A DNA stretch of 53,779 nucleotides from a virus. Below are positions 2,529 to 53,779 of this stretch, one piece after another. The DNA lies in IMG/VR virus record IMGVR_UViG_3300012933_000343, positions 1-53,779 of that record. One strand, given 5' to 3'. Below the pieces are notes generated by a model, which was given only the letters and a program-made list of their open reading frames with translations, was not told where the DNA came from and searched no databases. The position numbers and the translations under genes were made by a program. Numbering within the stretch: the first letter of the stretch is position 1; every line of letters starts with the position of its first letter.

Positions 2529-2613
2529 GTTTTAAGTGGGCTGCAAGTGGTTAACGTGGGTTTATTCAAGATATTTTTAAGCCAGTGTTGCTTTTTACGC
2601 TACACTCCCCGGC
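2529..2613. promoter_or_regulatory. Divergent early control region between the leftward and rightward operons
   Basis: 85-bp AT-richer gap between divergent ORFs. AAGTGG at 2534-2539 and 2545-2550 plus ACGTGG at 2554-2559, at 9-11 bp phasing. TACACT at 2601-2606 ends 7 nt before the ATG at 2614, which has no SD. Confidence 0.5.
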
Positions 2614-2880
2614 ATGACCGCAGAAACCAAAGACCCCGTGCTGGAAACCCCAGCAGATAAGTGCATTGACGCCTTCGGTGGCGTGCGCGCGCTTGCTCGC
2701 GCTTTGGAGCGAAACCCCAGCTCAGTTGTGCGCTGGCGCAAGCCCAAAGATGAGGGCGGGAGCGCGGGTGCCGTGCCGTCCAGCCTGCAGGGCCGAATCC
2801 TGGCCATGGCCCAAGAGCGAGGCTTGCACTTGACCGCCGAGGACATGATCTTGCGCACAGCGAAGGACTGGTCCTTGTAA
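2614..2880 (+). CDS. Cro/YdaS-like helix-turn-helix DNA-binding regulator (88 aa)
   Basis: Track ORF. CIDAFGGVRALARALERNPSSVVRWRK matches the YdaS/Cro-type HTH pattern. It is the first gene of the rightward unit, next to the divergent gap. Confidence 0.7.
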   Translation: MTAETKDPVLETPADKCIDAFGGVRALARALERNPSSVVRWRKPKDEGGSAGAVPSSLQGRILAMAQERGLHLTAEDMILRTAKDWSL

Positions 2881-3071
2881 TGGTCGCCGACCGGATGCTG
2901 CTGTCCGTGATCTCGCACACGCGATATGAGCTGCCGCGCGACATTGCCAGCCGCGTCGGCCTGCGCCGCGTCAACGCCTCCCTTGGCCGCTTGGTGCGCT
3001 GCGGATTGCTTGAGCGTGTGCCAGGGCCGACCTGCTTTTTGTACCGTTCAAAACAAGCGAGGATTGCGTGA
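2880..3071 (+). CDS. Small winged-helix-like DNA-binding protein (63 aa)
   Basis: Track ORF; LPRDIASRVGLRRVNASLGRLVRCGLLERV resembles a wHTH recognition helix plus wing; start overlaps the upstream stop (TAATG). Confidence 0.45.
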   Translation: MVADRMLLSVISHTRYELPRDIASRVGLRRVNASLGRLVRCGLLERVPGPTCFLYRSKQARIA

Positions 3072-3295
3072 AAGCAACGCCGCAAAAATCACCTCAGAAA
3101 TACGGTTGCTATAACCGCCCAGAGTATCGCAAGATGCTACCCGTGCAAGACGGCTGGTGGCTTGATGGCCAGACCCGAGTGGCCAAGATGACGCCCAGCC
3201 CGTTTCGCATGTCGCCCGAGTGCCAGTACACCCACACCGCGCTCGGCCAGTCAGATCACAAGTGTGTGGGGTGCAAACATAAAACGGAGGGCTGA
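3068..3295 (+). CDS. Hypothetical protein (75 aa)
   Basis: Track ORF; GTG start overlapping the upstream stop (GTGA); C-terminal CVGC. Confidence 0.45.
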   Translation: MKATPQKSPQKYGCYNRPEYRKMLPVQDGWWLDGQTRVAKMTPSPFRMSPECQYTHTALGQSDHKCVGCKHKTEG

Positions 3296-3436
3296 ATGAG
3301 CCAACCCGAGAAAAAACAACAGCCACCAATCAGGTGGCCATTTCCACCCGCCACCGGCCCCGTCCCTTGGACGCCCGGCCAGCTGCGCGCCTACCAACAG
3401 CAGCAACGTGAGCAAGTCGGGGAGGCACCATGGTGA
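3296..3436 (+). CDS. Small Pro/Gln-rich hypothetical protein (46 aa, below the track cutoff)
   Basis: Hand translation: MSQPEKKQQPPIRWPFPPATGPVPWTPGQLRAYQQQQREQVGEAPW. ATG directly follows the upstream TGA, with a ggaggg SD upstream. It fills an otherwise 135-nt gap. Confidence 0.4.
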   Translation: MSQPEKKQQPPIRWPFPPATGPVPWTPGQLRAYQQQQREQVGEAPW

Positions 3437-3936
3437 GCACTGAAAACACCGCCTGCAAACACGACTGGCATTTCCTGCCTGGCACAGATCGACTGCGCTG
3501 CATCCGCTGCAACACGGAGACCGGACCCAGCACGCCGGAGCAGCTCGCGCAAGCCATGCTGCGCGACGTTATCACCATGGGCAGTGCTTGGAGTCAAAAC
3601 GGCAAGCGCATCGACCCAACAGAGGTGTATGCCGTGCCTGCGGGGCTCGCGCAAGAATTCAAGTTCCACAACGCACAGCCCAACAGCATCAAGTTTTACA
3701 ACGGTGCTCCTGACAACACCGAAGTCCTGCGCATTTCCAAAGACGGCATCTGGGCCAACCCGGATGTGCCTGCAGACGATGCTGCGCAAGCCGTGCTGCG
3801 AGCAATAGACGGCCACATCAAGCAGATGGTCGATCGTGTGCGGCGTGAGGAGCGCGAGGCGTGTGCACGAATCGCGGAGACATCGCCTGATCGTTACCAC
3901 GCGGCCTCCGCCATCCGCGCCCGGAGCAACTCATGA
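3430..3936 (+). CDS. Hypothetical protein (168 aa)
   Basis: Track ORF; ggggagg SD; N-terminal C..H...CIRC cluster. Confidence 0.6.
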   Translation: MVSTENTACKHDWHFLPGTDRLRCIRCNTETGPSTPEQLAQAMLRDVITMGSAWSQNGKRIDPTEVYAVPAGLAQEFKFHNAQPNSIKFYNGAPDNTEVLRISKDGIWANPDVPADDAAQAVLRAIDGHIKQMVDRVRREEREACARIAETSPDRYHAASAIRARSNS

Positions 3937-10124: not shown

Positions 10125-10331
10125 ATGAAAACCAAAAATGAATCACTCCAACGAGGTCGTCCTTCAAAACACCCGTTTAGGGAACTTGATGTTGGTCAGT
10201 CCTTTCCCGTTCCTTTGAACGCTCAGGAATCCGTCAGGCGCCTTGCTTGGCGTCGAGGATTGGAGCTCAGTCGATCCTTCAGCGTTCGCAAACAACCCGA
10301 TGGCACGTTTCTGTGCACGCGCGTTGCATAA
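10125..10331 (+). CDS. Hypothetical basic protein (68 aa)
   Basis: Track ORF 10020..10331 trimmed to MKTKNESLQRGRPSK... The upstream part of the track ORF covers the AT-rich repeat region. Confidence 0.5.
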   Translation: MKTKNESLQRGRPSKHPFRELDVGQSFPVPLNAQESVRRLAWRRGLELSRSFSVRKQPDGTFLCTRVA

Positions 10332-10356
10332 TCCCCACCACCACCCAAGGCCCCCC

Positions 10357-11715
10357 ATGACCAAATCCACCACGGAAATCGCAGCCGAAAAACTTACCGG
10401 AAACCCTGCCGACAAAATCGAGCAGTGGAGCATCGACAAACTTATCCCCTACGCGCGCAACAGCCGCACGCACTCAGACGAGCAGGTCGGACAAATCGCC
10501 GCCTCGATCAAAGAGTGGGGCTGGACCACTCCAATCCTGGTCGATGAGAACGGCGGCATCATTGCCGGACACGGCCGCACGATGGCCGCACAGCGCCTCA
10601 AAATGACCACGGTCCCTGTCATGGTCGCCACAGGCTGGTCCGAGGCCAAAAAGATGGCCTACATCATTGCCGACAACCGCCTTGCCTTAAACGCCGGGTG
10701 GGACAACGAGATGCTCGCCACCGAGTTCAAAGACCTGCTCGACCTCGGCTTCGACGTCAGCCTCACAGGCTTTTCCGAGGAGGAGATCGACGCCTTGATG
10801 CCACTGGAGCTGGAAGAAGGCCTCACGGACCCCGACGACGCGCCCGAGGCCCCGGTCAACCCAGTCACGGTCCAAGGCGACGTTTGGGTGCTCGGCAAAC
10901 ACCGGCTCTTGTGCGGCGACAGCACCAGCATGGACGACTTGGCCAAGCTGTGCGAAAACCAAGCCGTCGACATGTGGCTGACCGACCCACCCTACAACGT
11001 GGCCTATGAGGGCGGCACCAAAGAGAAGCTGACCATCAAAAACGACGAGATGGGCGACGATCAGTTCCGCCAGTTTCTGCGCGACGCTTACACCGCTGCC
11101 GACTCGGTCATGAAATCCGGCGCGGTTTTCTACATTTGGCACGCTGACTCCGAGGGTTACAACTTCCGGGGCGCTGCCAAGGACGCCGGCTGGACTGTGC
11201 GCCAGTGCTTGATCTGGAAGAAGTCCTCCCTCGTCATGGGCCGCCAGGATTACCACTGGAAGCATGAGCCCTGCCTCTACGGCTGGAAAGACGGCGCGGG
11301 CCACCTCTGGGCTGCCGACCGCAAGCAGACCACCATCCTCGAGTTCGACAAACCCACCCGCAACGGCGAGCACCCGACCATGAAGCCCGTGGCCCTGTTC
11401 GAGTACCAGCTGCTCAACAACACCAAGGGCGGCGACATCGTTTTGGACTCGTTTGGCGGCTCCGGCACCACCCTGATCGCCGCCGAGAAAAACGGCCGAG
11501 TTGCACGGTTGATGGAGTTGGAACCAAAATACTGCGACGTGATCGTGACCCGGTGGCAGCAATTCACCGGCAAGCACGCCCACCTGGAGGCCGACGGTCG
11601 GTCCTTCACCGAGGTGATGGGCGAGCGCAGCCCCAACAGCCTGATCGGCAGCGAGATCGGCAAGGCTGACAAGCCCAAGGTTGAGAAGGCCAAACCTGCA
11701 AAATCGGCCGATTGA
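10357..11715 (+). CDS. ParB-like nuclease domain fused to a beta-class N6A/N4C DNA methyltransferase (452 aa)
   Basis: Track ORF trimmed to MTKSTTEI... N-terminal ParB/Srx pattern (IDKLIPYARNSRTH ... IIAGHGR), then DPPY (LTDPPYNV) preceding the SAM motif VLDSFGGSGTT. Confidence 0.85.
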   Translation: MTKSTTEIAAEKLTGNPADKIEQWSIDKLIPYARNSRTHSDEQVGQIAASIKEWGWTTPILVDENGGIIAGHGRTMAAQRLKMTTVPVMVATGWSEAKKMAYIIADNRLALNAGWDNEMLATEFKDLLDLGFDVSLTGFSEEEIDALMPLELEEGLTDPDDAPEAPVNPVTVQGDVWVLGKHRLLCGDSTSMDDLAKLCENQAVDMWLTDPPYNVAYEGGTKEKLTIKNDEMGDDQFRQFLRDAYTAADSVMKSGAVFYIWHADSEGYNFRGAAKDAGWTVRQCLIWKKSSLVMGRQDYHWKHEPCLYGWKDGAGHLWAADRKQTTILEFDKPTRNGEHPTMKPVALFEYQLLNNTKGGDIVLDSFGGSGTTLIAAEKNGRVARLMELEPKYCDVIVTRWQQFTGKHAHLEADGRSFTEVMGERSPNSLIGSEIGKADKPKVEKAKPAKSAD

Positions 11716-12801: not shown

Positions 12802-12995
12802 CTGCCTCAGCGGCTTACCCGGGCGATGAAGACGTGTTTTGCCATTTGGTCCCGATCGGGGACTTTAAGGAGCATGAGCTATCGCGCGCTTGCTGGTGCC
12901 ACCCACGCCCCGACGAGCAAGTGCCAGAGGTGATGGTCCACAACGCCATGGACCAGCGCGAGCGGCTTGAGCGCGGGGAGATTTACATCCAATGA
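12798..12995 (+). CDS. Hypothetical protein (65 aa)
   Basis: Track ORF 12690..12995 trimmed to MTASAAYPG... (ATGA overlaps on both sides); C..H...C.CH cluster. Confidence 0.5.
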   Translation: MTASAAYPGDEDVFCHLVPIGDFKEHELSRACWCHPRPDEQVPEVMVHNAMDQRERLERGEIYIQ

Positions 12996-14569
12996 GCGCG
13001 CCCGTTTCGCCAGCCGTCATGCTGGACATGATCTCCAAGGAGCAAGCTCGCCGCAGGGCGGGCGCTTCGCTCTACGAGTTCGTCAAGCAGTCTTGGCACG
13101 TCATGGAGCCCGGCGTCCCGTTCGTCCCGAGCTGGCACATCGAGGAGATCTGCGAGCACCTGGAGGCTGTAAGCTGCGGCGACATTCAGCGGCTGCTGAT
13201 CAACATCCCGCCGCGCCACTCCAAGTCCACCATCGTCTCGGTGGCCTGGTGCGCCTGGGAGTGGATCGCCAATCCAGAGCAGAAGTTCTTGGCCGCGTCG
13301 TACTCGGGCACGCTGTCCATCCGGGACAACTTGAAGGCCCGTCGCCTGATCCAGTCGCCTTGGTACCAGGACCGCTTTGGGCATATGTTCAACCTTGCGG
13401 GCGACCAAAACGCCAAGCAGCGCTTCGAGAACGACTGCACCGGCTACCGAATCGCCACCTCGGTGGGCGGTACCGCAACGGGTGAGGGCGGCTCGCGTTT
13501 GATCCTTGACGACCCGCACGGCGCGCAGGACGCGCAGTCCGAGACCATGCGAGAGACCGCGCTCGAGTGGTTCGACATGGTCTGGTCGACCCGGCTGAAC
13601 AACCCCAAGACCGACGCCATGGTCACCGTCATGCAGCGCCTGCATGAGAAGGACATCAGCGGTCACATCCTGAACGACATCGGCGGCTGGGAGCACATCT
13701 GCATCCCTGCCGAGTGGGACGGCAAGAAGCGCAGCACGGTGCTCGGCTCCTACGACCCGCGCACGGTCAAGGGCGAGCTGATCTGTCCGGACCGATTCGG
13801 TGAGGCCGAGATCACCAAGCTCAAGCAACTGCTGGGCACCTACGGCTCGTCTGGCCAGCTGCAGCAGGACCCGTCTCCCACCGAGGGCGGCATCTTGGCC
13901 ACCAAGCACTTTCAGCTTTGGCAGTCGGTTACCCGCCTGCCGCAGTTCGAGTACATCCTGCAAAGCTACGACACCGCGTTCACCGAGCGCACCACGGGCG
14001 ACCCGACCGCCTGCACCGTCTGGGGCGTGTTCTCGCACCGAGGCCTGCGCAACGCGATGCTGCTGGACGCCTGGGACGAGCACCTGTCTTACCCGGACCT
14101 GCGCGCCCGCGTCATCCGGGACTGGACGTCGCAGTACGGCGCGGACGCCAGCCCCAAGGCGGGGATGCCGACCAAGGGCAGGCGGCCCGACCGTTTGCTG
14201 GTCGAGGCGAAGGCCTCGGGGCAGTCGCTGCTGCAGGACCTGCGGTTGGCCAAAGTCCCGGCCGTTGGCTACAATCCCGGGCAAGCGGACAAGGTTTCGC
14301 GGGCGCACCAGGCAGCGCCAACGCTGGAGCTGGGGTTGTTGTGGATTCCCGAGTCCACCAAAAACCCCGGGCAGCCAGTCAGTTGGGCGGCCACCTTTCT
14401 GAAGCAGATCGCCAAGTTCCCTGTCGCAGAGCACGATGACTACGTGGACACCTTCACCCAGGCAGTCATTTTTCTGAAAAACGATGGCTGGTTCGAGCTG
14501 CCGCAAGCAAGCGACGCGGACGAGCCAAGACCGTACAAGAAGGAAAGGTCGAATCCTTATGCCGCCTGA
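12992..14569 (+). CDS. terL: Terminase large subunit (525 aa)
   Basis: ATPase centre LLINIPPRHSKST (Walker A-like) and LILDDPH (Walker B), followed by a nuclease half; size and position after TerS fit. Confidence 0.9.
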   Translation: MSAPVSPAVMLDMISKEQARRRAGASLYEFVKQSWHVMEPGVPFVPSWHIEEICEHLEAVSCGDIQRLLINIPPRHSKSTIVSVAWCAWEWIANPEQKFLAASYSGTLSIRDNLKARRLIQSPWYQDRFGHMFNLAGDQNAKQRFENDCTGYRIATSVGGTATGEGGSRLILDDPHGAQDAQSETMRETALEWFDMVWSTRLNNPKTDAMVTVMQRLHEKDISGHILNDIGGWEHICIPAEWDGKKRSTVLGSYDPRTVKGELICPDRFGEAEITKLKQLLGTYGSSGQLQQDPSPTEGGILATKHFQLWQSVTRLPQFEYILQSYDTAFTERTTGDPTACTVWGVFSHRGLRNAMLLDAWDEHLSYPDLRARVIRDWTSQYGADASPKAGMPTKGRRPDRLLVEAKASGQSLLQDLRLAKVPAVGYNPGQADKVSRAHQAAPTLELGLLWIPESTKNPGQPVSWAATFLKQIAKFPVAEHDDYVDTFTQAVIFLKNDGWFELPQASDADEPRPYKKERSNPYAA

Positions 14570-16895
14570 CACCCCGTCAATTTTTTCTGTCTCGCCGTAC
14601 TCGCGCGCAATTGCACGCGAAATGTACCCGGGACAGCGCGGCCAAAACGACCAACAAGACGCAGCCAGGCACATGCTGGCCGCTGGCACGATGGCGCGCA
14701 AGTACGGCCCAAGAGTTGCCGAGCTGGCGGGCAAGGCGCACGAATACGTCGAGTCGCCACTTAAGGCAATGATGATGATGCTGGGCCGTGGCCAGATGCC
14801 ACCGGACTACGAGCAAGACCTGCACAACAACGCGCTGGGAATCGAGATGGCCAATCGCGCCCAGTCCCAGCGTGATTTGGAGGACTTGGTCCAATCGATG
14901 GCTGAGCGATCGGCAACCTCGCAAACACAGGGTCGCCCCTGGGTGAACAAAGCAAAGGGCGGCGCAGTGACCGCCCCAAGGAGTGCCAATATGGCTGACG
15001 ATTTAAACCGCCCGTTCATCGGCTACCGCTCCGCTGGTCGCCGCCCCGAGTCCCAGCAAGACCGCCGTGCCTCCGCCGACGCTCCGCTGGCTGCGCTGCG
15101 CGGGATGGTGTCCGGTGTGCTTGGCGCTCCCGGCGACATCGAGTCGCTGATCCGCATGCTGCCCGGTCTGTCCGAGCAGACTGTGCTGCCGACCAGCGAG
15201 GATGTGCGCGGCCGTTTGCCTGGACGCTCTCTGGAGTCGACACCGGTGGGCCGAGCCGCAACGGAGCTTGGCACGCTTGGCGGCGGTTTCTACACTGGCC
15301 CAGGCTCCCCATTGCGCGCCGTCGCTGCGCTTCCGTCGGCGGTGTCGCGCGCTGGGCGTGACTTTGCGTTGTCCGCAGGTCAGCCTGCCGTGAACGTGGT
15401 TAAGCCTAATGGTGCGCGATCACTGACCGAGATGTTTTCGAAGTATGCAGCACCAGAATCAACCGGCAAACAGGCCGCACCAGGCTCGCACGCTGGATTA
15501 TTTAACCAATGGTTGACGGAGCAACCAGAGGATGCAATCACCGCAATCAATCGCAACATTTTTTCACGCAAGAGCGGCCCAAAATACGACTACGAGCTTC
15601 GCATGATGCCGATTGAAAAAGCAAAACCCACCCAGGTTGGCGAAAATTACCTTAACGATTCAAGTCGTTACACAGCCAAAGAACTCAAGACAAAAGATAT
15701 CTACAGCATTCATCGTACAAACGATGCGCTGCCAATCATCCTTGACGAGGCTGGCAACATTTCCGACGGTAACCACCGGCACGCGGCAGCCGTCCTTAAT
15801 GGCGAGAATGTCATCCCGGCTTTGGTGCCTGTTGGGGAAGGCAGCGGAAAAGTTATTAACCTACCTTCAAATGTTGATAAGCCCGGATTCTCCCAAGGCG
15901 GCCAGGTTCGCGGCTACGCCGAGGGCGGAATCGTCAGCAGTATTGATCCGCCAGCTCGCGGCTACGACTGGCAAGCAATTGCCGATGCGGCCAAAGTCTC
16001 GGGCTTGCCAATCTCCAGCTTCATGTCAAGAAATTGGGACAAAATAATGGGCGGGATGTACAACTTGGCCCCAGCTCCCGTTGTTCAGGTCCCAACCACA
16101 ACCACGCCAAACAACAGCAATTACAGCGGCGGCAGTGATGGGGATTCAACAGGAAACAATTTTGGTTTGGATGGCATCGGCCTAAATACTGGTGGCCTTA
16201 ACACGAGCGGAATTCAAGGCGTTGTCAGCCAGGCCATGATGGACGCCGCTCAAATCGCAATTGGCCAAGTGGCCAATGCCATAAGCACGCCAAACACCCC
16301 ATCTCAACAAGCGGCGATTAGCGTTTCAGACTTGGGGGTAGCGTTGGATGGGACAACGGGCCCAAGCTCAGCAACGGGCATCGGTGTGGGTAGTACTGCC
16401 GGAATTAACGCCATGGACGCCATGAGCGACGCAGCCTCGGCGGCAGGTAACGGTGGCACCGCCGGTGGTGTTTCCGGTGTTGGTGTTGGCAGCTCGGACG
16501 GCGTAAACGGAATGGATGCATCCAGCGACGCAGCCTCGGCGGCATCAAGCGACGGCGACGCAGCCTCGGCTGACGGCGACGGAGGTTCGAGCTCCGGAAC
16601 TGGCGACGGTGGCGGTTCAAGCGCGGGAGACGGCGGTGGCTCAGGTGATGGCGGAGGTAGTTCGGGAGGGGATGGTGGCGGCGATGGCGGAGGCGGCGAT
16701 GGCGGAGGTTGGGCAAAAGGCGGTCAAATCAAACTGAGAAACTTGGATAAAAAATACGCCAAATCATTAACAAAGCGAAAAACCAAGTTTTTTGCAGGCG
16801 GCCAAGTAAGTGGTGCGAATTTCCCCACATACGACTTCGACCCGGATAGAATCGACGCAATTGTGGGCGAGCTCCACGCAATGAACGCAGGCTGA
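14559..16895 (+). CDS. Large virion-module protein with a central ParB/sulfiredoxin-like domain and a Gly/Asp/Ser-rich C-terminus (778 aa)
   Basis: Track ORF 14484..16895 trimmed to MPPDTPSIF... ParB/Srx pattern IEKAKPTQVG ... PIILDEAGNISDGNHRHAAAVLNGENVIPALV at about 15603-15835. N-terminal D..RH ... HE ... DLHNN..G motif series. GDS low-complexity tail at 16380-16715. Five x-G-G-x-[VI] motifs. Confidence 0.6.
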   Translation: MPPDTPSIFSVSPYSRAIAREMYPGQRGQNDQQDAARHMLAAGTMARKYGPRVAELAGKAHEYVESPLKAMMMMLGRGQMPPDYEQDLHNNALGIEMANRAQSQRDLEDLVQSMAERSATSQTQGRPWVNKAKGGAVTAPRSANMADDLNRPFIGYRSAGRRPESQQDRRASADAPLAALRGMVSGVLGAPGDIESLIRMLPGLSEQTVLPTSEDVRGRLPGRSLESTPVGRAATELGTLGGGFYTGPGSPLRAVAALPSAVSRAGRDFALSAGQPAVNVVKPNGARSLTEMFSKYAAPESTGKQAAPGSHAGLFNQWLTEQPEDAITAINRNIFSRKSGPKYDYELRMMPIEKAKPTQVGENYLNDSSRYTAKELKTKDIYSIHRTNDALPIILDEAGNISDGNHRHAAAVLNGENVIPALVPVGEGSGKVINLPSNVDKPGFSQGGQVRGYAEGGIVSSIDPPARGYDWQAIADAAKVSGLPISSFMSRNWDKIMGGMYNLAPAPVVQVPTTTTPNNSNYSGGSDGDSTGNNFGLDGIGLNTGGLNTSGIQGVVSQAMMDAAQIAIGQVANAISTPNTPSQQAAISVSDLGVALDGTTGPSSATGIGVGSTAGINAMDAMSDAASAAGNGGTAGGVSGVGVGSSDGVNGMDASSDAASAASSDGDAASADGDGGSSSGTGDGGGSSAGDGGGSGDGGGSSGGDGGGDGGGGDGGGWAKGGQIKLRNLDKKYAKSLTKRKTKFFAGGQVSGANFPTYDFDPDRIDAIVGELHAMNAG
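16380..16715 (+). repeat. Coding low-complexity / imperfect tandem repeat (Gly-Asp-Ser-Ala rich)
   Basis: agcgacgcagcctcggcggca occurs at 16425 and 16524 (99-bp offset), a third partial copy at 16557, then (GAT/GAC)GG(C/T)GG(n) runs encoding GDGGGSS...GDGGGDGGGGDGGG. Confidence 0.8.
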
Positions 16896-16900
16896 ACAAT

Positions 16901-19426
16901 ATGGCAGATCAACTCTTGAACGACGGCGAAGACGAGAATCCATCTGACGACGCACAGCGCGGCGAGTCTGTCTCGCTCCCTGGCGACGACGAGATGGACA
17001 TCCACGACACTGATGACGGCGGCGCGATGGTTCGCATCGGCGACGACCGAGATGTGGTGGACAAGAAGGCCCACTTCGCCAACATTGTGGAAGAGGTCGA
17101 CCAAGGCATGCTGGACGACGCCGTGGTGGACTTGATCGACAAGATCGAGCGCGACAAAGACGCTCGCTCCAAGCGCGACAAGCTCTACGAAGAAGGCCTG
17201 CGCCGCACGGGCCTCGGCGACGACGCCCCCGGTGGAGCTCAGTTCTCGGGCGCGAACAAGGTTGTGCACCCCATGCTGGTCGAGGCCTGCGTTGACTTCA
17301 GCGCCCGCTTCATGAAAGAGGTGTTCCCGCCTTCTGGCCCCGTGAAGTCCAAAGTGCTGGGCACCGTGGATAAGGAAAAGCTGGACAGGTCGCGCCGCAA
17401 GACCGATTTCATGAACTGGCAGACCACCGAGCAAATGCCCGAGTTCCGTGGCGAGCTCGAGCAGCTCTCGACGCAGCTGCCCTTGGGTGGCGGCCAGTAC
17501 CTCAAGCTCATGTGGTCGCCCCAGTGGCGTCGCCCCACCTCCGAGTTCATCGCCATCGATGACATGTACCTGCCGTTTGCGGCCACTAACTTTTACTCTG
17601 CCGAGCGCAAAACGCACGTGCAGTACGTGACCAAGGCTGAGTTCAACCGCCGCGCCAAGGCTGGCATGTACATCGACGTGGACCTGGGCTCACCCGATCA
17701 GATCGATTTCAGCCGCGCGACCAAGGCCAACGACAAGATCGAGGGCCGCGAGGACACCAGCTACAACGAGGACGGGTTGCGCACGATCTTTGAGATTTAC
17801 ACGCATCTGGACTTTGGTGACGGCATGGAGCCGTACATCATCAGCATCGACAAGTCCACGCGCCAGGCGCTGAGCTTGTATCGCAACTGGGAGCCAGAGG
17901 ACAATCGCCGCCGCGAGCTGGAGTGGATTGTCGAGTTCCCGTTTGTGCCATGGCGCGGTGCGTACCCGATTGGCTTGACCCACATGATCGGCGGCCTGTC
18001 TGGCGCGGCCACCGGCGCTTTGCGTGCATTGCTGGACTCGGCCCACATCCAAAACATCCCCACGCTCTTGAAACTAAAGGGCGGCCCTGGCGGGCAGACG
18101 ATCAACCTGCAGCCGACCGAGGTGGTCGAGATCGAGGGCGGCGCGCTTGTTGACGACATTCGCAAGCTGGCCATGGCGCTGCCGTTCAACGGCCCGTCCC
18201 CCACGCTGTTCCAGCTGCTCGGCTTCTTGGTCGATGCTGGCAAGGGCGTCGTGCAGACCTCGTTCGAGAAGCTGGCCGATCAAAACGCCAACGCACCTGT
18301 CGGTACCACGCTGGCGCTGATCGAGCAGGGCATGGTGGTTTTCAGCTCCATTCACTCGCGCTTGCACAACTCGATGGAGCGGGTGTTCAAAATCCTGCAC
18401 CGCATCAACAGCGCATACTTGACCGAAGAGGACATCAAAGCGGATGCCGCCGGCCTTGACGTCAAGCCAGAGGACTTCGACGGTCCGATGGACGTGATTC
18501 CGGTCAGCGACCCCGCCATCTTCAGCGAGGCTCAGCGTTTTGCCCAGGTCACGGCCGTGCAGCAACGTTCAGCGATGTTGCCGCAGATGTACGACGCGCG
18601 CAAGGTTGAGGAGATGTTCCTGCGCAACCTGAAGCTCAACCCTGGCGACGTGCTCAACCCACAGCCGGGCGAGGACGATGTTGACCCGGTAAGTGAAAAC
18701 GTGGCCGCATCGCTTGGCCGCCCTGTTTTTGTTCTGCCAAAGCAGGACCACATCGCGCACATCCAAACGCACCTGGCGTTTTTGAAGTCGCCTTTGTTTG
18801 GCTCAAACCCGGCCGTGGTGAAAACCTACCTGTACCCGATGGCTCAGCACCTGCGCGATCACTTGCTGAACTTCTACCTCACGCAAGCTCATGAGGCCGT
18901 TCAGCGTGCCGAGTCCGAGGGTTTGATCACGGACGAGGCCAGCCAGCAGGTGAAGGTGATTGTTCGCGTGCAGCAGGTCATCGAGCAGCAAATGGCGCAG
19001 TTCGCCCAAGAGCTGGCCCAGATCGACCAGGCCGCCCAGCAGTTTGCGCCTCAGCCGCCGCAGATGCCGCAGGACAAGAGCCTGGAAGTTGCCCAGATCA
19101 ACGCTCAGGTGCGTCAGGCCGACAGCCAGCAGCGCGCTCAGTCCGATGCCGCACGCTTGCAAGTCGAACAGGCCAAGCTCTCGCAAAAGCAGCAGGCAGA
19201 CCAGCAAGCCTTGGCCGACAAGCAGCAAGCGCGCATGGAAGAAATGCAGGTCGCTCAGTTGCAAGAGGCCATGGAGAACGAGCGAACAGCCGCCGAGATC
19301 GACGCGCGTTTGCAAATGAACTCGGACGACAACGCCACGGCCATGCGCCTGGCGGCCGCAGAGATTGCCTCCGGCGAAAAGGTCGCCGTGAGCACAGGCA
19401 CGGGCATCAACCCGGGCACACGTTAA
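16901..19426 (+). CDS. Portal protein (841 aa), probable
   Basis: Large ORF downstream of TerL; acidic N-terminus; long Gln-rich coiled-coil C-terminus reminiscent of a P22-type portal barrel. Assigned from position and size, not from a diagnostic motif. Confidence 0.6.
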   Translation: MADQLLNDGEDENPSDDAQRGESVSLPGDDEMDIHDTDDGGAMVRIGDDRDVVDKKAHFANIVEEVDQGMLDDAVVDLIDKIERDKDARSKRDKLYEEGLRRTGLGDDAPGGAQFSGANKVVHPMLVEACVDFSARFMKEVFPPSGPVKSKVLGTVDKEKLDRSRRKTDFMNWQTTEQMPEFRGELEQLSTQLPLGGGQYLKLMWSPQWRRPTSEFIAIDDMYLPFAATNFYSAERKTHVQYVTKAEFNRRAKAGMYIDVDLGSPDQIDFSRATKANDKIEGREDTSYNEDGLRTIFEIYTHLDFGDGMEPYIISIDKSTRQALSLYRNWEPEDNRRRELEWIVEFPFVPWRGAYPIGLTHMIGGLSGAATGALRALLDSAHIQNIPTLLKLKGGPGGQTINLQPTEVVEIEGGALVDDIRKLAMALPFNGPSPTLFQLLGFLVDAGKGVVQTSFEKLADQNANAPVGTTLALIEQGMVVFSSIHSRLHNSMERVFKILHRINSAYLTEEDIKADAAGLDVKPEDFDGPMDVIPVSDPAIFSEAQRFAQVTAVQQRSAMLPQMYDARKVEEMFLRNLKLNPGDVLNPQPGEDDVDPVSENVAASLGRPVFVLPKQDHIAHIQTHLAFLKSPLFGSNPAVVKTYLYPMAQHLRDHLLNFYLTQAHEAVQRAESEGLITDEASQQVKVIVRVQQVIEQQMAQFAQELAQIDQAAQQFAPQPPQMPQDKSLEVAQINAQVRQADSQQRAQSDAARLQVEQAKLSQKQQADQQALADKQQARMEEMQVAQLQEAMENERTAAEIDARLQMNSDDNATAMRLAAAEIASGEKVAVSTGTGINPGTR

Positions 19427-19854: not shown

Positions 19855-20250
19855 ATGAGCGAAGCATTGATCGAGGCTTTTCCGGATGCCGACCCAGGCA
19901 TCACCCCATTTGGAAGCCGTGTCTTGGTGCAAATCCGAAGCCCCAAGAGCAAGACCGCCTCTGGCATCATTCTTGACAGCGGCTCCCGCGACACCGAAAA
20001 GTGGAACACGCAAGTGGCCAAGGTGATCAACGTCGGCGCGCTGGCCTTCAAGAACCGAAACACCATGGACTCCTGGCCAGAGGGCAGCTGGTGCAAGCCG
20101 GGCGATTACGTTCGTGTGGCCAAGTACGGCGGCGATCGCTGGGAGGTTCCCATGCCCAACGGCGAGTCCGCCCTTTTCGTGATCTTCAACGATCTGGACA
20201 TCATTGGCCAGGTGACCGGCGACCCGCTGGCCATTCGTGCGTTCATCTGA
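19855..20250 (+). CDS. GroES/Cpn10-like co-chaperonin (131 aa)
   Basis: ITPFGSRVLVQIRSPKSKTASGIILDSG...AKVINVG ... GDYVRVAKYGG ... FVIFNDLDIIGQV aligns by eye with E. coli GroES (IRPLHDRVIVKR.EVETKSAGGIVLTGS ... GDIVIFNDGYG ... ESDILAIV). Confidence 0.7.
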   Translation: MSEALIEAFPDADPGITPFGSRVLVQIRSPKSKTASGIILDSGSRDTEKWNTQVAKVINVGALAFKNRNTMDSWPEGSWCKPGDYVRVAKYGGDRWEVPMPNGESALFVIFNDLDIIGQVTGDPLAIRAFI

Positions 20251-22913: not shown

Positions 22914-23828
22914 ATGGCAACCCCAATGCGCAGTACGGACTTCCGTTCCGTAGTCGAGCCCATCCTGAACGAAGTGTTCGATGGTGTTTATGAGCAACGT
23001 GCCGACGAGTGGAAACAAGTGTTCCGCGAGCAAAAAGGCATCCCACGCAACTACCATGAAGAGCCCGTCTTGTACGGCTTCGGCGCAGCTCCTGAGCTGC
23101 CCGACGGCATGGCAGTGACGTACCAGTCCGGCGGCGTGCTGTTCTTGCAGCGCTACCTGTACAAGGTGTACGGCTTGGCCTTTGCTTTGACCAAAGTTTT
23201 GGTTGAAGACGGCGACCACATCCGTATCGGCCAGACTTACGCCAAGCACTTGGCTCAGTCGCTGATCGAGACCAAAGAGACCCTGGCTGCCAACATCTTG
23301 AACCGTGCATTCAACGGCGCGTACACAGGTGGCGACGGCGTGGCTCTGGTTTCCACGGCTCACCCCATCGTCAACGGCACGTTCAGCAACCAGCTGTCCA
23401 CCGCCGCTGCCCTGTCGCAGACGTCCCTCGAGCAGATGCTGATTCAGATTCGCAATGCTGTGGACAACAACGGCAAGCGCATCCGCCTGACACCCAAGAA
23501 GATCGTCACCGGTCCTTCCAACGTGTTCTCGGCTGAAGTGCTGCTGAAGTCCGTGCTGCGCACTGGCACCGCTGACAACGACATCAACCCTGTGAAATCG
23601 ATGGGCTTGCTGGCCGAAGGCCAGGCCAACTTGTCGCGTATCACTTCCACCACAGCCTGGTGGGTTCAGACCGACGCTCCCGAAGGTCTGAAACTGTTGA
23701 TGCGTCGCGGCCTGGAGAAATCCATGGAAGGCGACTTCGAAACCGACAGCATGCGTTACAAGGCCACAGAGCGTTACGTTCTGGGCTGGACTGACCCACG
23801 CGGCGTGTTCGGCACATCCGGCATCTGA
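22914..23828 (+). CDS. Major capsid protein (304 aa)
   Basis: Track ORF, aaggag SD, followed by the strongest terminator in the window. Size and position are typical of HK97-fold capsid proteins. C-terminal ...TTAWWVQTD...Y pattern. Confidence 0.75.
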   Translation: MATPMRSTDFRSVVEPILNEVFDGVYEQRADEWKQVFREQKGIPRNYHEEPVLYGFGAAPELPDGMAVTYQSGGVLFLQRYLYKVYGLAFALTKVLVEDGDHIRIGQTYAKHLAQSLIETKETLAANILNRAFNGAYTGGDGVALVSTAHPIVNGTFSNQLSTAAALSQTSLEQMLIQIRNAVDNNGKRIRLTPKKIVTGPSNVFSAEVLLKSVLRTGTADNDINPVKSMGLLAEGQANLSRITSTTAWWVQTDAPEGLKLLMRRGLEKSMEGDFETDSMRYKATERYVLGWTDPRGVFGTSGI

Positions 23829-23887: not shown

Positions 23888-24517
23888 GTTGGCACACCCT
23901 TTAAAATTGGGCCAAAAGGGTTGTTTATGCCATACAAAATCGACGTAGTTGGAATATACAAAATCGTTAACAAGGCCACGGGGCATTGCTACGTTGGCCA
24001 ATCTCAATATGTCAAAAAAAGGCTTAAAGAGCATTTCAGGCTGCTTCGTTTAAACAAGCACCCAAACGGGCACTTGCAAAATTCTTACAACAAATACGGG
24101 CTTGAGAATTTTTACGGCTCAATTGAAATTGAGTGCGATAGCACCGTTGATTTAGACCAGCTTGAGGAGATGTTTATTTCTGGGGCTGCTTGGTTTGATC
24201 AACCCACTGTTTACAACATTGCTGATTTTGCTAAAGCTCCAATGCGTGGAAAAACGCATAGTGCCGAGGTAAGAATGCGAATCAGCGCAGGAAGAAACGC
24301 AACAACATTTGACTACAGAAGTCCGGAATATCGGGAAACTTTGTCAAGAGCGCAAATGGCACGCTTTCATTCAGACCAAAAATTTATGGCAAAAGTAAAG
24401 TTTATATTGGACAATTCCGACCTGTCATATGCTGAGCGTGGAAGACGTCTTGGTGCCGACACAAGCTCAGTGCGAAGGATTGCGCTGAGGTATCAACATC
24501 TCAAAGGAGTACCGTAA
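23888..24517 (+). mobile_element. Free-standing homing-endonuclease gene cassette (GIY-YIG) inserted between the capsid terminator and the next structural gene
   Basis: The segment is markedly AT-richer than its surroundings (hand counts of 35-48% GC per 60 nt against about 60% around it). It starts right after the terminator and ends with TAATG overlapping the next gene. Confidence 0.6.
23927..24517 (+). CDS. GIY-YIG family homing endonuclease (196 aa)
   Basis: VGIYKIVNKATGHCYVGQS...RLKEH...N..LQNSYNKYG..NF (GIY-YIG core), followed by NUMOD-like HSAEVRMRISAGR. Confidence 0.88.
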   Translation: MPYKIDVVGIYKIVNKATGHCYVGQSQYVKKRLKEHFRLLRLNKHPNGHLQNSYNKYGLENFYGSIEIECDSTVDLDQLEEMFISGAAWFDQPTVYNIADFAKAPMRGKTHSAEVRMRISAGRNATTFDYRSPEYRETLSRAQMARFHSDQKFMAKVKFILDNSDLSYAERGRRLGADTSSVRRIALRYQHLKGVP

Positions 24518-25380: not shown

Positions 25381-25623
25381 ATGGAGATGATGCTTTGGAA
25401 TGTGGCCCTCAGTGCAATTGTGGCGGTCATGGGATTTTTGCTTAAGAGCAAGTTTGACGAGCTGGATCGGTTGAGTATTTTGCTCAACCGCACCCGCGAA
25501 GAGGTCGCTCGAGACCACATCACTCGCGCCGAGTTCAGGGCGGACATGCAACAACTGCTTGATCGGTTTGACCGAATTGAGCGCAAGATCGACAATTTAA
25601 AAGGTCATCCCGAACGGGAATGA
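25381..25623 (+). CDS. Small membrane-anchored coiled-coil protein (80 aa)
   Basis: Track ORF; N-terminal hydrophobic helix (LWNVALSAIVAVMGFLL) followed by a charged helical segment. Confidence 0.5.
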   Translation: MEMMLWNVALSAIVAVMGFLLKSKFDELDRLSILLNRTREEVARDHITRAEFRADMQQLLDRFDRIERKIDNLKGHPERE

Positions 25624-25634
25624 AGGAGCGCATC

Positions 25635-26162
25635 ATGGGCTGCACATACGTCAAAGAGTTCGACTTCGGAACCAAAAAAGCCGATGGCGGCGTGGTGAAA
25701 TACGCCAAGGGTGGCAAGGTTCAAAACCCTGGCATGCTGGCCGACAACAGCAATCTGGGCATCAAAGGCAACAAGAACCCTGGCATCAAAGGCGCAAAGC
25801 CTGTGGCTCCAGACCTGCCCACACTGAAGCTGGCCAAGGGCGGCGCTTGCAAGTCCGCCTACGCAGAGGGTGGCAAGGTCCACAGCGATGCGGCGATGGA
25901 CAAGAAAAGCATGGTCAAAGCTGTGCACAAGCATGAGAAAGCGCTGCACAAGGGCGAGCCTTTGACCAAGCTGGCCAAGGGCGGCAAGGTTCCACGCGTT
26001 GAGGCTATGGAAAAGCGCGAGATGGCCGAGACTCCAAGCATGCGCCGCGAGTCGGCCATGAGCAGCCGCAAGGTGCAAGCTCCCGTGCGCAAAATGGTCC
26101 CCGTCTCTCCCCGTGAGCCGATGTTGGCCATGAAAAAAGGCGGTAAAGCCTCGATGTGCTGA
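25635..26162 (+). CDS. Lys-rich basic protein with repeated A-K-G-G-K-V motifs (175 aa); possible internal or DNA-associated virion protein
   Basis: Track ORF 25620..26162 trimmed to MGCTYVKEF... (aaggag SD 6 nt upstream). Motifs ADGGVV, YAKGGKV, LAKGGAC, YAEGGKV, LAKGGKV, MKKGGKA. Confidence 0.55.
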   Translation: MGCTYVKEFDFGTKKADGGVVKYAKGGKVQNPGMLADNSNLGIKGNKNPGIKGAKPVAPDLPTLKLAKGGACKSAYAEGGKVHSDAAMDKKSMVKAVHKHEKALHKGEPLTKLAKGGKVPRVEAMEKREMAETPSMRRESAMSSRKVQAPVRKMVPVSPREPMLAMKKGGKASMC

Positions 26163-36947: not shown

Positions 36948-37387
36948 AATACATCGGAACTCAACGCGAGAATGAGGCGATTGAATGGGCCAAAAATGTG
37001 CTCAACATCGAAGGCCCGACTGGTTTTTGCCGTGCATTGTCTGCAGTTGATGCCGCCGGGGAATTTGTTTTTGTTGTGGTGCTTTCAAACTTCACAGAGA
37101 CAAACGTGGACATGCACACTTCCGCCAAGCCTGGTGCCAAATGGGCCACGCCGCGCGCTGCCGTTGAGATGTTTCGAGGCGTTTTTGGGTATGCTTTTGA
37201 TCATTTCCAGGTGCAACGCGTGACAGGCCTGGTGCGTGCAAAAAACACAGCTGCTCGTCATTTTGACGAGCACATTGGATTTCAGCTCGAGGGCGTGATG
37301 CGCCGGGCTTTTAAGGACGACGATCTTTGCGTTTACGGTTTCTTGCGCGAGGATTACATTTCACACAGATGGAATCGGAGTAAATAA
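36944..37387 (+). CDS. GNAT-family N-acetyltransferase (147 aa)
   Basis: Track ORF 36914..37387 trimmed to MKYIGTQRE... RVTGLVRAKNTAARHFDEHIGFQLEGVMRRAF...D..VYGFLREDY matches the RimJ/RimL-type GNAT core (motif A plus the C-terminal beta strands). Confidence 0.7.
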   Translation: MKYIGTQRENEAIEWAKNVLNIEGPTGFCRALSAVDAAGEFVFVVVLSNFTETNVDMHTSAKPGAKWATPRAAVEMFRGVFGYAFDHFQVQRVTGLVRAKNTAARHFDEHIGFQLEGVMRRAFKDDDLCVYGFLREDYISHRWNRSK

Positions 37388-39297
37388 TGGACAAACAAAC
37401 AATCATGGCGCTGGCGGCCAACAACCCTCAAGTCGCGCAAGCCGCAGACATCATTGAGGCCCGAATTTCCAACATGCCCGGCATCACCGAAGAGATGATT
37501 GACCAGTTGGTGGCCACCCTTGAGTACGTGCTGCAAAACCCGCAAAAGTACCCAGAGGTTCGCGAGGCCGCCATTCAAGCTGGTTTTGGCTCAGAGCAAG
37601 ATTTCCCCGCTGAGTTTGACCCAACGCTGATTGTCTCCATGCTGGTGGCGTTGTACGAAGTTCAAGCTCGTTACCAAGGGGGGCAGTCGCAGGCATTTGC
37701 CCGGGGCGGTCTTGCCCAGGCCGCCAGCCGAGTTGCTGCAGCTGGCCGTGGTGGTGACAGCATGTTGGCACACATCAATCCGCGAGAAGCAGCCATGCTG
37801 GCGCGTATGGGCGGCAGCGGTACCGTCAATCCAACCACAGGCTTGGTTGAGTTCAAAGGAGGCATCGGCAAACTTATTGCTGCTGTTGCTCCTATAGCGT
37901 TGTCGATTTTGGCTCCAGGCATCGGTACCGCAATCGGCGGCTTTATTTCTGGCGGCGCGTTGGCTGGAACTGCGGCCAGCATGCTTGGCGGCGCAGCGAT
38001 CGGTGGCCTGTCCTCTGCTGCCGCAGGCGGTGATCCACTGAAGGGCGCGCTCGGCGGCGCGTTGGGGGCAGGCGCTGGCGGTGCCCTTGGTGGTGCTATC
38101 GGCGATGCAACCGGCATGACGCTGAGCAACACGGCGCAAAACGTGCTGGGCAGCTCTTTGATTGGCGGCGCTCAGAGTGCGGCCAGCGGGGGCGACTTCC
38201 TAACCGGCGCTGTGCAAGGCGGTGTCGGCGGCTATGCTGGCAGCGCGCTTTCTGGGGCTGCTGGGGGCTTTGATGGCAAGCTCGGCGCTGGGTTGCAGAC
38301 CGCAGGCCAGCAGTTTGGCAACGCGCTGACCATGGGGGCTGATGCAAAGCAGGCGCTCACGCAAGGAGCGCTTTCTGGCTTGGCTGCGGCTTATGCCGCC
38401 CCATCGGCACCAGCGCCAAAGTCAATCTACGACATCACGCCCGCCGAGACTGGCGGTATTGGCCTAAAGGCACCGTCCGACCTGGTGATCGAGGGCTTGA
38501 AAGTTCCTCATGTCAACACAACTAGCATGCCAGAAAGCGGCCTCAGCACAAATTACAGCCTGACCGGTGGAAACACGCCAACGTTCAGTGGGCCCGACAG
38601 CTTCACGCCGGATTACTCGCTGGCTGGACCATCAATGACTGACTCGGCATCTGCTGAGCCTTACACTGGAACAGGCCTCAAAGCATCCCCGCTGAACACG
38701 ATTGCGGCGCAAACAACTGACGCGACCTCTTTGGTGCCCAAAGCACCAGCAGGAACGGCCAACAAGGGATTCAGCCTTGGCAACGCCGCATCAATGCTGC
38801 CTTTGCTCAGCATGTTTGGCAGCGCGCAGACGCCGGAAGAAGTGCAGCAAGTTGTGGCCGGTATGACGCCCGAGCAGCAGGAATACTTCAACCGTCCGAT
38901 GCGAAGCTGGAACTGGGACACACTCAGCGCGGCGGCAAAAATGCAAAACCTGCCCGTCGGTAGCTACATTGCTCGCAACTGGGACAAGGTTGGCGGCGGC
39001 ATGTATGACCAGTCAACTGAAGAGCCTAAGGCCTTTGCCCGTGGCGGCGCTTTGACCCGATTGGCCCGTGGCGGCGGCTCTGGCCGTGATGACACCATCA
39101 ACGCCAAGCTGTCGGACGGAGAGTACGTGATGGACGCCGAGACCGTGGCGCTGTTGGGCGATGGCTCAACGGATGCAGGGGCTCGCCGTTTGGACGAGAT
39201 GCGGGCTAAAATCCGTCAACACAAAGGCAAATCGATGGCCCGGGGCAAGTTCAGCGCGAACGCCAAATCGCCGTTGGCATATTTGAAAGGCGCTTAA
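37387..39297 (+). CDS. Internal virion / ejection-type protein with a Gly-rich membrane segment (636 aa)
   Basis: Long Gly/Ala hydrophobic stretch (GKLIAAVAPIALSILAPGIGTAIGGFISGGALAGTAASMLGGAAIGG...). Motifs FARGG (twice), LARGG, DSMLAHINPREAAMLARMGGSGTVNPTTGLVEF and LSDGEYVMDAETV. Position in a block of four large late ORFs. Confidence 0.55.
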   Translation: MDKQTIMALAANNPQVAQAADIIEARISNMPGITEEMIDQLVATLEYVLQNPQKYPEVREAAIQAGFGSEQDFPAEFDPTLIVSMLVALYEVQARYQGGQSQAFARGGLAQAASRVAAAGRGGDSMLAHINPREAAMLARMGGSGTVNPTTGLVEFKGGIGKLIAAVAPIALSILAPGIGTAIGGFISGGALAGTAASMLGGAAIGGLSSAAAGGDPLKGALGGALGAGAGGALGGAIGDATGMTLSNTAQNVLGSSLIGGAQSAASGGDFLTGAVQGGVGGYAGSALSGAAGGFDGKLGAGLQTAGQQFGNALTMGADAKQALTQGALSGLAAAYAAPSAPAPKSIYDITPAETGGIGLKAPSDLVIEGLKVPHVNTTSMPESGLSTNYSLTGGNTPTFSGPDSFTPDYSLAGPSMTDSASAEPYTGTGLKASPLNTIAAQTTDATSLVPKAPAGTANKGFSLGNAASMLPLLSMFGSAQTPEEVQQVVAGMTPEQQEYFNRPMRSWNWDTLSAAAKMQNLPVGSYIARNWDKVGGGMYDQSTEEPKAFARGGALTRLARGGGSGRDDTINAKLSDGEYVMDAETVALLGDGSTDAGARRLDEMRAKIRQHKGKSMARGKFSANAKSPLAYLKGA

Positions 39298-53457: not shown

Positions 53458-53779
53458 GGCTTGCCTTTCGTGGGTGCGGCGGCGAGCATGGCCCCGTAGC
53501 ACTCAATGGCTGCAACAATCAGGGCGCGGTCGTACCCACGGAGGCGAAGGTCTGCTACGCCCGCATCTAGCATTTCGGGTGTCGGCTTTACCGGAACCAG
53601 CCTCCACCCTTCGGGCACGGCTGGCTGTGCTGAGGGTGGGGTAGCGAGTTTGCAAAGAGGGTGATGATCGCCGGGTGCGCAAAGCGGCTTCCCGCAAGAC
53701 AACGGCATTCCCATGCTATCAATGGGCTCCTGCACAGGTGCTGCAAGGGCACGCTCATCAGCACGAACAAGGGCTTCAA
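53454..53779 (-). CDS. 3' part of the junction-spanning CDS (see 1..155)
   Basis: The track ORF 53454..53735 starts at a GTG, but the frame is open upstream to the window edge and continues in frame into 56..155 after circular closure. Contains PEGWRLVPVKPTPEMLDAG, a motif common in small phage proteins. Confidence 0.7.
   Translation of the reverse strand, partial: EALVRADERALAAPVQEPIDSMGMPLSCGKPLCAPGDHHPLCKLATPPSAQPAVPEGWRLVPVKPTPEMLDAGVADLRLRGYDRALIVAAIECYGAMLAAAPTKGKP
53725..53779. repeat. Right copy of the 55-bp exact terminal repeat (identical to 1..55)
   Basis: Verbatim identity with bases 1-55. Confidence 0.97.

Follow-up and report, generated by a model that had tools for sequence, protein, structure and literature searches.

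A hypervariable cassette locus between the terminase and portal genes of an uncultured phage clade, with a 778-aa mosaic protein as one of its alleles

Polyvalent proteins are multi-effector polypeptides of phages and conjugative elements, whose genes lie among virion genes and for which packaging and injection are predicted (Iyer et al. 2017, PMC5512222). DdrB-like ParB domains, encoded beside virion genes, form a hub of this class, and the ParB-like DdrB protein of phage P1 is processed and incorporated in the head (PMC5512222). Another point of reference is BteO, a type VI secretion system (T6SS) effector of Bacteroides fragilis GA3, which acts in the periplasm and binds OmpA (PDB 9UU0; PMC12541434). 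Here we describe a gene coding for a protein of 778 amino acids (aa), located between the large terminase (TerL) and portal genes of IMG/VR virus record IMGVR_UViG_3300012933_000343, which was analysed at its full length of 53,779 nt (the window). In this single open reading frame (ORF) a DUF6973 domain, assigned by sequence to the BteO family, is combined with a domain of predicted ParB/sulfiredoxin (Srx) fold. The protein is one allele of a hypervariable TerL-portal cassette locus in a clade of ~54-kb uncultured phages, and is best read as a polyvalent effector on a previously undescribed chassis, with a BteO-family domain and an unmodelled ParB/Srx subfamily. The original prediction, which knew of no described function for such an architecture, was too strong on this point, since the architecture fits the polyvalent proteins (PMC5512222).

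The window represents a complete phage genome, assembled as a circle of 53,724 bp: its bases 1-55 recur exactly as bases 53725-53779, a terminal direct repeat typical of circular assembly. The gene and its two neighbours lie as follows.

12992..14569, + strand: large terminase, TerL (phrog_38, E 3e-90)
14559..16895, + strand: whole gene of the 778-aa mosaic (polyvalent) protein, no internal stops in the translation
16901..19426, + strand: portal protein, 841 aa (phrog_1216)

As predicted, the start of the gene overlaps the end of the TerL ORF, by 11 nt, and the portal ORF begins 6 nt past its stop. A longer frame is possible from the ATG at 14484, but homologues begin with MP(P/N/K)DTPS, which favours the start at 14559. 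The first protein search returned 345 homologues at E<=1e-3, many of them on ~54 kb metagenomic contigs, indicating that the gene is real. A tblastn search of 50,697 INPHARED phages with the 778-aa protein gave zero matches, the PHROGs search gave a single marginal one (phrog_17560, E 0.043), and PADLOC returned nothing for the protein.

The protein was divided into the following modules, some of them defined with the help of AlphaFold2 (AF2) models.

14580..14948, + strand: N-terminal all-alpha domain, aa ~8-130, Pfam DUF6973 (PF22322) (Pfam, phmmer, AF2)
14949..14969, + strand: junction motif 1, KAKGGAV, aa 131-137, between DUF6973 and core
14978..14993, + strand: internal Shine-Dalgarno-like AAGGAG followed by the ATG of Met145
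14991..15413, + strand: conserved core, aa 145-285, Pro/Gly/Arg-rich, with the GAPGDIESLIRMLPG motif (117/120 homologues)
15413..16796, + strand: cassette, aa 286-746, without a nucleotide match in the closest relative (nucleotide comparison)
15456..15884, + strand: domain of predicted ParB/Srx fold, aa ~300-442 (AF2, Foldseek, profile search)
15765..15779, + strand: DGNHR, aa 403-407, aligned at the position of the ParB box II GERR (profile alignment)
15888..15935, + strand: tandem junction motifs 2 and 3, FSQGGQV RG YAEGGIV, aa 444-459
15942..16064, + strand: 41-aa module, aa 462-502, ending in ...SRNWDKIMGGMY (pairwise comparison)
16116..16706, + strand: acidic low-complexity region rich in Gly, Ser, Ala and Asp, aa 520-716 (composition)
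16710..16808, + strand: junction motif 4 (WAKGGQI, aa 718-724), basic stretch (aa 725-743) and junction motif 5 (FFAGGQV, aa 744-750)
16809..16892, + strand: conserved C-terminal tag SGANFPTYDFDPDRIDAIVGELHAMNAG (homologue comparison)

Three of these elements, namely the conserved core, the junction motif and the C-terminal tag, went unrecognised in the original prediction.

Architectures were surveyed with a BLAST map of the 120 best homologues. Nearly all of these share aa 145-289 and the last ~35 residues, and vary in the N-terminus and the middle. The core motif was present in 117 of the 120, the C-terminal tail in 99, a PcfJ-like module in 104 and a fused DUF6973 domain in 31; the ParB-like module was found in four homologues and the acidic low-complexity region in two. 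Among orthologues encoded at this locus, ART-PolyVal and PcfJ-like modules are found. A search of IMG/VR located ~246 loci. At 50 IMG/VR loci containing both TerL and portal, the interval between the two genes ranged from ~1.05 to 5.4 kb and its largest ORFs from 248 to 1801 aa, and none of the 50 had a ParB-like module in this slot. The gene order TerL-X-portal does recur: primase, ParB-methylase, TerS, TerL, X, portal, ..., Cpn10, ..., MCP (major capsid protein) are kept in this order in metagenomic relatives, so that the position in the head gene block is conserved. The rarity of the ParB-like module among the homologues and its absence from the 50 loci indicate that this module is an optional cassette.

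The closest relative, L009, has a 98% identical portal, and its TerL and portal DNA is 95-96% identical to that of the window. In L009 a PcfJ-like module takes the place of aa 286-746. The left flank of the exchanged segment (DUF6973 and core) is 88% identical and the right flank 95%, and similarity returns at nt 16797, within junction motif 5. The locus is thus a clean natural case of cassette exchange at defined motifs in phages that are otherwise ~95% identical. L009 also contains ~950 extra nt between TerL and the DUF6973 gene (2533-3486 of that locus), which contain two open frames (167 and 165 codons) and are missing from the window; the left edge of the slot is thus a second indel hotspot.

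In many relatives DUF6973 is encoded by a separate upstream ORF overlapping the start of the core ORF. A programmed frameshift joining the split ORFs was considered; the fused and the split forms differ by larger indels. Where relatives have stand-alone DUF6973 proteins, the usual tail is replaced by a conserved C-terminus, ...SPLN(Y/H)(V/I)KECSC(H)G (Cys-x-Cys-His); such proteins are encoded in L003 (2670-3008) and L004 (4001-4498), and P0270, P0272, P0288 and P0316 have the same ending.

In the nearest cultured relatives, Caulobacter phages RW, KcrB, RLK and GB2A (portal 56% identical), a tRNA-Val gene is the sole occupant of the interval between TerL and portal; for these phages the earlier statement that the slot is normally empty holds. 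MW202545.1 (portal 48% identical) encodes an unrelated 890-aa slot protein with three strict junction motifs. A gene missing in the nearest cultured relatives cannot be required for assembly, and this bears on the possibility that the 778-aa protein is a required structural ejection or internal-core protein (cf. T7 gp15/gp16, P22 gp7/gp16/gp20) forming a trans-envelope channel, with the enzymatic-looking domains being secondary. Such a role would suit the head-module position, the long disordered stretch rich in Gly and the presence of one module that recurs in a 636-aa tape-measure-like protein of the same genome (see below), and the envelope-targeting N-terminal domain recalls T7 gp16, which has a transglycosylase domain. 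However, a core structural protein would not be expected to vary between 248 and 1801 aa with unrelated content, and an essential structural role is rather improbable because the slot can be empty beside portals of 56% identity.

All module boundaries carry the motif [FYWK][AS]xGGx[VIL] (consensus G-[FY]-A-x-G-G-x-V-[RS]-G), which occurs in the 778-aa protein at aa 131, 444, 453 and 718, with a relaxed copy at 744. It was counted 258 times in 122 homologues vs 2.7 times in shuffled sequences. In a control set of 147 unrelated proteins with ParB-like domains the motif was at chance level (4 vs 2.9 expected) and the tail never occurred, indicating that motif and tail belong to the chassis of this clade and not to the cargo. 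The tag has a consensus of ~28 residues, GANFPTDDFDPxRIDxIVGELHAMNAG, and its motif begins 23 residues from the C-terminus in 80/80 proteins carrying it. Two variants of the tag are distinguished, type A (FDPxRIDxIV...) and type B (YNPxxI/VxxLV...). The tail-bearing proteins are 152 to 1164 aa long and have diverse cargo domains; minimal proteins consisting of DUF6973, junction and tail are among them.

The conserved core is presumed to be a chassis or anchoring region. Neither the core (aa 145-289) nor aa 443-778 had a Pfam match even at E<=10, and PDB sequence searches with the core and the 41-aa module gave chance matches only. Most homologues start at the equivalent of Met145 (MADDL...), and the retained AAGGAG and ATG at this position suggest that a shorter, 634-aa product without the DUF6973 domain could also be made. 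In the acidic region, residues 520-716 include 57 Gly, 32 Ser, 27 Ala and 21 Asp and no Lys or Arg, and the DNA holds a degenerate 99-nt tandem duplication. The low-complexity C-terminus and subsequent basic stretch that had been predicted are both present: SDAASAA occurs twice (at 623 and 656), GDGGGSSGGDGGGDGGGGDGGG spans 696-717, and nine Lys/Arg fall within aa 721-760. A collagen-like repeat was rejected as an explanation of the Gly-rich region, since G-X-Y periodicity was absent on reading the sequence, and so was an RTX-type Ca-binding repeat, the GGxVxGYAE unit being incompatible with GGxGxDxUx.

The DUF6973 match covers residues 12-113 and passes the gathering cut-off of 27 bits with both the whole protein (34.4 bits) and aa 1-144 (39.1 bits). 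The sole PDB relative by sequence is 9UU0, BteO (phmmer alignment, E 0.0039), and the aligned BteO fragment itself matches the same DUF6973 model (50.1 bits, E 2.5e-13). Residues R37, H38, H61, E62, D83 and D87 align to R143, H144, H167, E168, D187 and D191 of BteO, so that all six functionally tested BteO residues are kept in the phage domain. The AF2 model of aa 1-300 is all-helical over aa 11-130, with a predicted local distance difference test (pLDDT) score of 80-97. A Foldseek search of the PDB with this model returned noise (G-protein-coupled receptors, Mcl-1) and no BteO; 9UU0 is a maltose-binding protein fusion and may be absent from the searched set. Because Foldseek failed to recover BteO, the link to BteO rests on sequence. 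A literature search under the name DUF6973 found no papers.

BteO is toxic when acting from the periplasm and non-toxic in the cytoplasm, and peptidoglycan-degrading activity was not detected (PMC12541434). Alanine substitutions of the six residues named above abolished toxicity and markedly reduced OmpA binding; these R-H / H-E / D..D residues line a groove that engages the target and the immunity protein (PMC12541434). The N-terminal motif series of the original prediction is present (DAARHML aa 34-40, GKAHEY 58-63, DLHNNALG 87-94), and its comparison to toxin domains is supported by the DUF6973/BteO assignment, whereas the suggested metal site is not, the corresponding BteO residues lining the groove. 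The two proteins differ in that BteO stands alone as a T6SS effector and has an N-terminal transmembrane (TM) helix and a cognate immunity protein, BtiO; the phage domain, of low sequence similarity to BteO, is the N-terminus of a larger protein and has neither a TM helix nor a neighbouring immunity gene. Neither a signal peptide nor a TM segment was apparent when the sequence of the 778-aa protein was inspected. As BteO is toxic in the periplasm only, delivery from outside would be the simplest route to this compartment.

The same observations bear on an unlikely but plausible alternative, namely that the protein is an effector or toxin expressed late but left out of the virion, which acts in the producing cell or is freed at lysis, for example as a polymorphic toxin harming neighbours or as a lysis accessory detaching the outer membrane from peptidoglycan via OmpA. 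An interbacterial T6SS effector has DUF6973 as its toxin domain, cassette polymorphism of the locus is typical of polymorphic toxins, and the gene is dispensable in related cultured phages. On the other hand, the protein has no signal peptide or TM segment for reaching the periplasm from inside, BteO is non-toxic in the cytoplasm, and no immunity-like gene adjoins, TerL and portal flanking the gene directly. In addition, a common route of loading and delivery would more easily explain why diverse cargos bear a strictly C-terminal tag and why one module recurs in a virion-type protein.

The ParB/Srx fold proposed earlier for the central domain was borne out by structure prediction. The AF2 model (pLDDT 88.3, predicted template modelling score 0.82) has two N-terminal helices followed by a beta1-(helices)-beta2-beta3-alpha-beta4 core. 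The top 45 Foldseek matches in the PDB were all ParB/Srx proteins (probability up to 1.0, best E 8e-3), including pNOB8 ParB-N, human and plant sulfiredoxin, Noc, CTP-bound ParB, SerK, SbnI, KorB, PadC and Atu1540. Matches in the viral library BFVD were ParB/Srx wherever named, many of them in phage proteins of >1000 aa. When the profile of a 63-sequence family alignment was compared with the PDB, all five matches were ParB, SbnI or Spo0J (E 0.26-1.1), and the alignment paired PI..D...I.DGNHRHAA...G...IPALV with LQPILV...IIAGERRWRAS..G...VPAIV. The central motifs quoted in the original prediction (KPTQVG aa 356-361, DGNHRHAAAV 403-412, IPALV 419-423) fall in this domain.

The family motifs are P357-x-Q359-x-G361-E-[D/N]-Y-x-N366-x-S368-S369 and P392-I-x-x-D...D403-G404-N-H406-R407-H-A-A-A. 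Across the 63 sequences D389, P392, D403, H406 and R407 are invariant, and P357, Q359, G361, N366, S368, S369, G404 and A410 near-invariant. A word-indexed search with the central domain alone found two proteins; an exhaustive profile search recovered 183 cluster representatives. Of these, 92 reached E<=1e-10, and many of the 183 are embedded in proteins of 1000-6000 aa. One distant homologue lies within a 2622-aa phage protein bearing the InPase polyvalent domain. The central domain is a subfamily captured by no Pfam model: ParB_N (PF02195) has no match in the 778-aa protein and sub-threshold matches in the family, and the ddrB-ParB model (PF18763) is matched by just 9 of the 63 family members, all weakly. 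The domain is therefore treated as a sister subfamily of DdrB-like ParB, not as a member.

The phage domain shares with the ParB/Srx superfamily the common core fold and the conserved Arg (with His) in the nucleotide-phosphate pocket of Srx and ParB. It differs in having extra helices, which bear the GEDY-N-SS motif, and DGNHR in place of GERRxRA. A ParB CTPase clamp was rejected, since in the alignment of DGNHRHA to GERRWRA the second Arg alone is kept, leaving no GERRxRA box, and since junction motifs, and no helix-turn-helix (HTH) or dimerisation domain, follow the domain. The catalytic Cys of sulfiredoxin sits in a GGCHR motif; sulfiredoxin was rejected as well, the position of this Cys being taken by N405 of DGNHR.

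These features, together with the distribution of the module, also make it very improbable that the protein is a packaging accessory, i.e. a ParB-like DNA clamp or nuclease acting at the pac site together with terminase, without being passed on to the next host. Translational coupling to TerL through the 11-nt overlap and the binding of DNA and NTPs by ParB-fold proteins would agree with such a function. However, the ParB-like module is rare among orthologues (4/120, and 0/50 loci) while TerS and TerL are conserved, the GERRxRA box and the HTH and dimerisation domains are missing, and a separate ParB_N-methylase and TerS are already encoded upstream. Among the functions offered by the original prediction, injected effector is the best supported, and a pac-site or packaging factor is unlikely given the rarity of the module.

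Taken together, it appears somewhat more probable than otherwise that the 778-aa protein is an accessory polyvalent effector on a clade-specific chassis, which is made late, probably enters the head and probably passes into the host along with the DNA. Swappable virion cargo is most likely, rather than a packaging factor. Synthesis would be late and coupled to TerL. The chassis would consist of the Pro/Gly-rich core (aa 145-285), the junction motifs at the module boundaries and the invariant ~28-residue C-terminal tag. The tag may serve as an address that docks the protein in the procapsid, the core perhaps contributing, and the junction motifs may be processing sites, extra docking motifs or a mere recombination joint. 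After release at infection, the BteO-like DUF6973 cargo would act on OmpA-type anchors in the periplasm, and the ParB/Srx cargo, with its His-Arg nucleotide-phosphate pocket, is predicted to work in the cytoplasm, by NTP binding or hydrolysis or by the nicking of DNA, so as to blunt host defence.

Several points weigh against this interpretation. The gene is wholly missing in the Caulobacter phages RW, KcrB, RLK and GB2A. MuF, MPTase and portal fusion, the hub domains of packaged polyvalent proteins, were absent in Pfam searches, and the match of the central domain to ddrB-ParB is far sub-threshold (14.4 bits, E 0.04, vs the 27.6-bit gathering threshold). The core was modelled by AF2 at low confidence, and the fold search with the aa 1-300 model recovered neither BteO nor any other relative. 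A prohead protease was not identified in the genome, which leaves the idea of junction processing without an enzyme. Packaging itself is proposed from genomic context and analogy.

The likeness to polyvalent proteins such as P1 DdrB lies in the combination of several unrelated effector domains, one of ParB/Srx type, in a late, virion-associated location, in orthologues with ART-PolyVal and in the extensive domain shuffling among close relatives. In contrast, the 778-aa protein has no MPTase, MuF or portal fusion, its ParB-like domain has its own Q-x-GEDY-x-N-x-SS / DGNHRHAAA signature, and the combination of core, G[FY]AxGGxV junctions, tag and fixed TerL-portal position is undescribed in PMC5512222.

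Membership in the MuF family (Phage_Mu_F, PF04233) was rejected, as no match was found at E<=0.1 with the whole protein or at E<=10 with segments, and the gene precedes the portal gene. The MuF domain is typically N-terminal, and MuF genes usually lie just after the portal gene. MuF polymorphic toxins of temperate phages, CdiA (VENN) and Rhs (DPxGL) proteins have a conserved delivery part, exchangeable toxin cassettes and a motif at the point of exchange. The phage protein resembles them in all three respects, but it lacks MuF, its conserved parts flank the cargo, and its motif is different and occurs in several copies per protein. The capsid-targeting sequence of T4 and the cargo-loading peptides of encapsulins are targeting peptides for HK97-fold shells. 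As in those systems, the tag is a short conserved terminal peptide that follows a flexible Gly-rich linker and is found on unrelated cargos; sequence similarity was not found, and the parallel is pure analogy.

A bolder form of the polyvalent-effector interpretation, which we put forward tentatively, is that this is a clade of freshwater phages with plug-and-play cargo. Proteins joined by G[FY]AxGGxV and ending in the tag would be loaded into the HK97-fold head, cut at the junctions by a head protease and ejected, delivering a periplasmic OmpA-binding toxin and cytoplasmic effectors (ParB/Srx, ART, PcfJ). If the protein is packaged, a family of T6SS antibacterial toxins (BteO/DUF6973) would be linked to phage entry, and an uncharacterised ParB/Srx subfamily, many of whose 183 representatives occur in giant phage proteins, would join the candidates for injected counter-defence. 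Terminal tag and junction motif would then constitute a simple rule for loading foreign proteins into a phage head, useful for engineering.

Outside the TerL-portal slot, two ORFs of the genome have sequence features in common with the 778-aa protein.

37387..39297, + strand: 636-aa Gly/Ala-rich ORF, tape-measure/ejection-like (homologues annotated tape measure)
25620..26162, + strand: Lys-rich 180-aa ORF in the structural gene block, with about six copies of xAxGGxV-type motifs

Residues 462-502 of the 778-aa protein are 44% identical to aa 501-541 of the 636-aa ORF (pairwise E 1e-11). The latter, which shares the 'RNWDK..GGMY' module, has a long Gly/Ala-rich hydrophobic middle and FARGG junction-like motifs, and its C-terminal ~65 aa are 61% identical to Caulobacter phage proteins annotated as tape measure. 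The motif copies of the 180-aa ORF read KKADGGVV, KYAKGGKV, KLAKGGAC, AYAEGGKV, KLAKGGKV and MKKGGKA; this ORF had no match in PHROGs or INPHARED. It is possibly part of the same system as the 778-aa protein, and might serve whichever factor recognises the junction motif as a partner, decoy or substrate.

Further genes of the head region and its surroundings are as follows.

10243..11715, + strand: ParB_N-N6/N4 DNA methyltransferase fusion, upstream of TerS (phrog_498, E 5e-178)
19855..20250, + strand: Cpn10/GroES co-chaperonin, between the portal and capsid genes (Pfam E 1e-8)
22914..23828: major capsid gene (MCP)
23921..24517, + strand: homing endonuclease, directly after the MCP gene (phrog_314 best, E 3e-21)

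The ParB_N domain of the methyltransferase is conventional and distinct from the ParB-like domain of the 778-aa protein. The phage Cpn10/GroES is kept in all relatives examined, Caulobacter phage KcrB included. The homing endonuclease is of the GIY-YIG type according to one PHROG match. The head module also encodes proteins of 323, 176 and 197 aa. Finally, a 642-aa ORF at 39299-41227 contains two tandem 117-nt copies (39758-39991), which are 73% identical.

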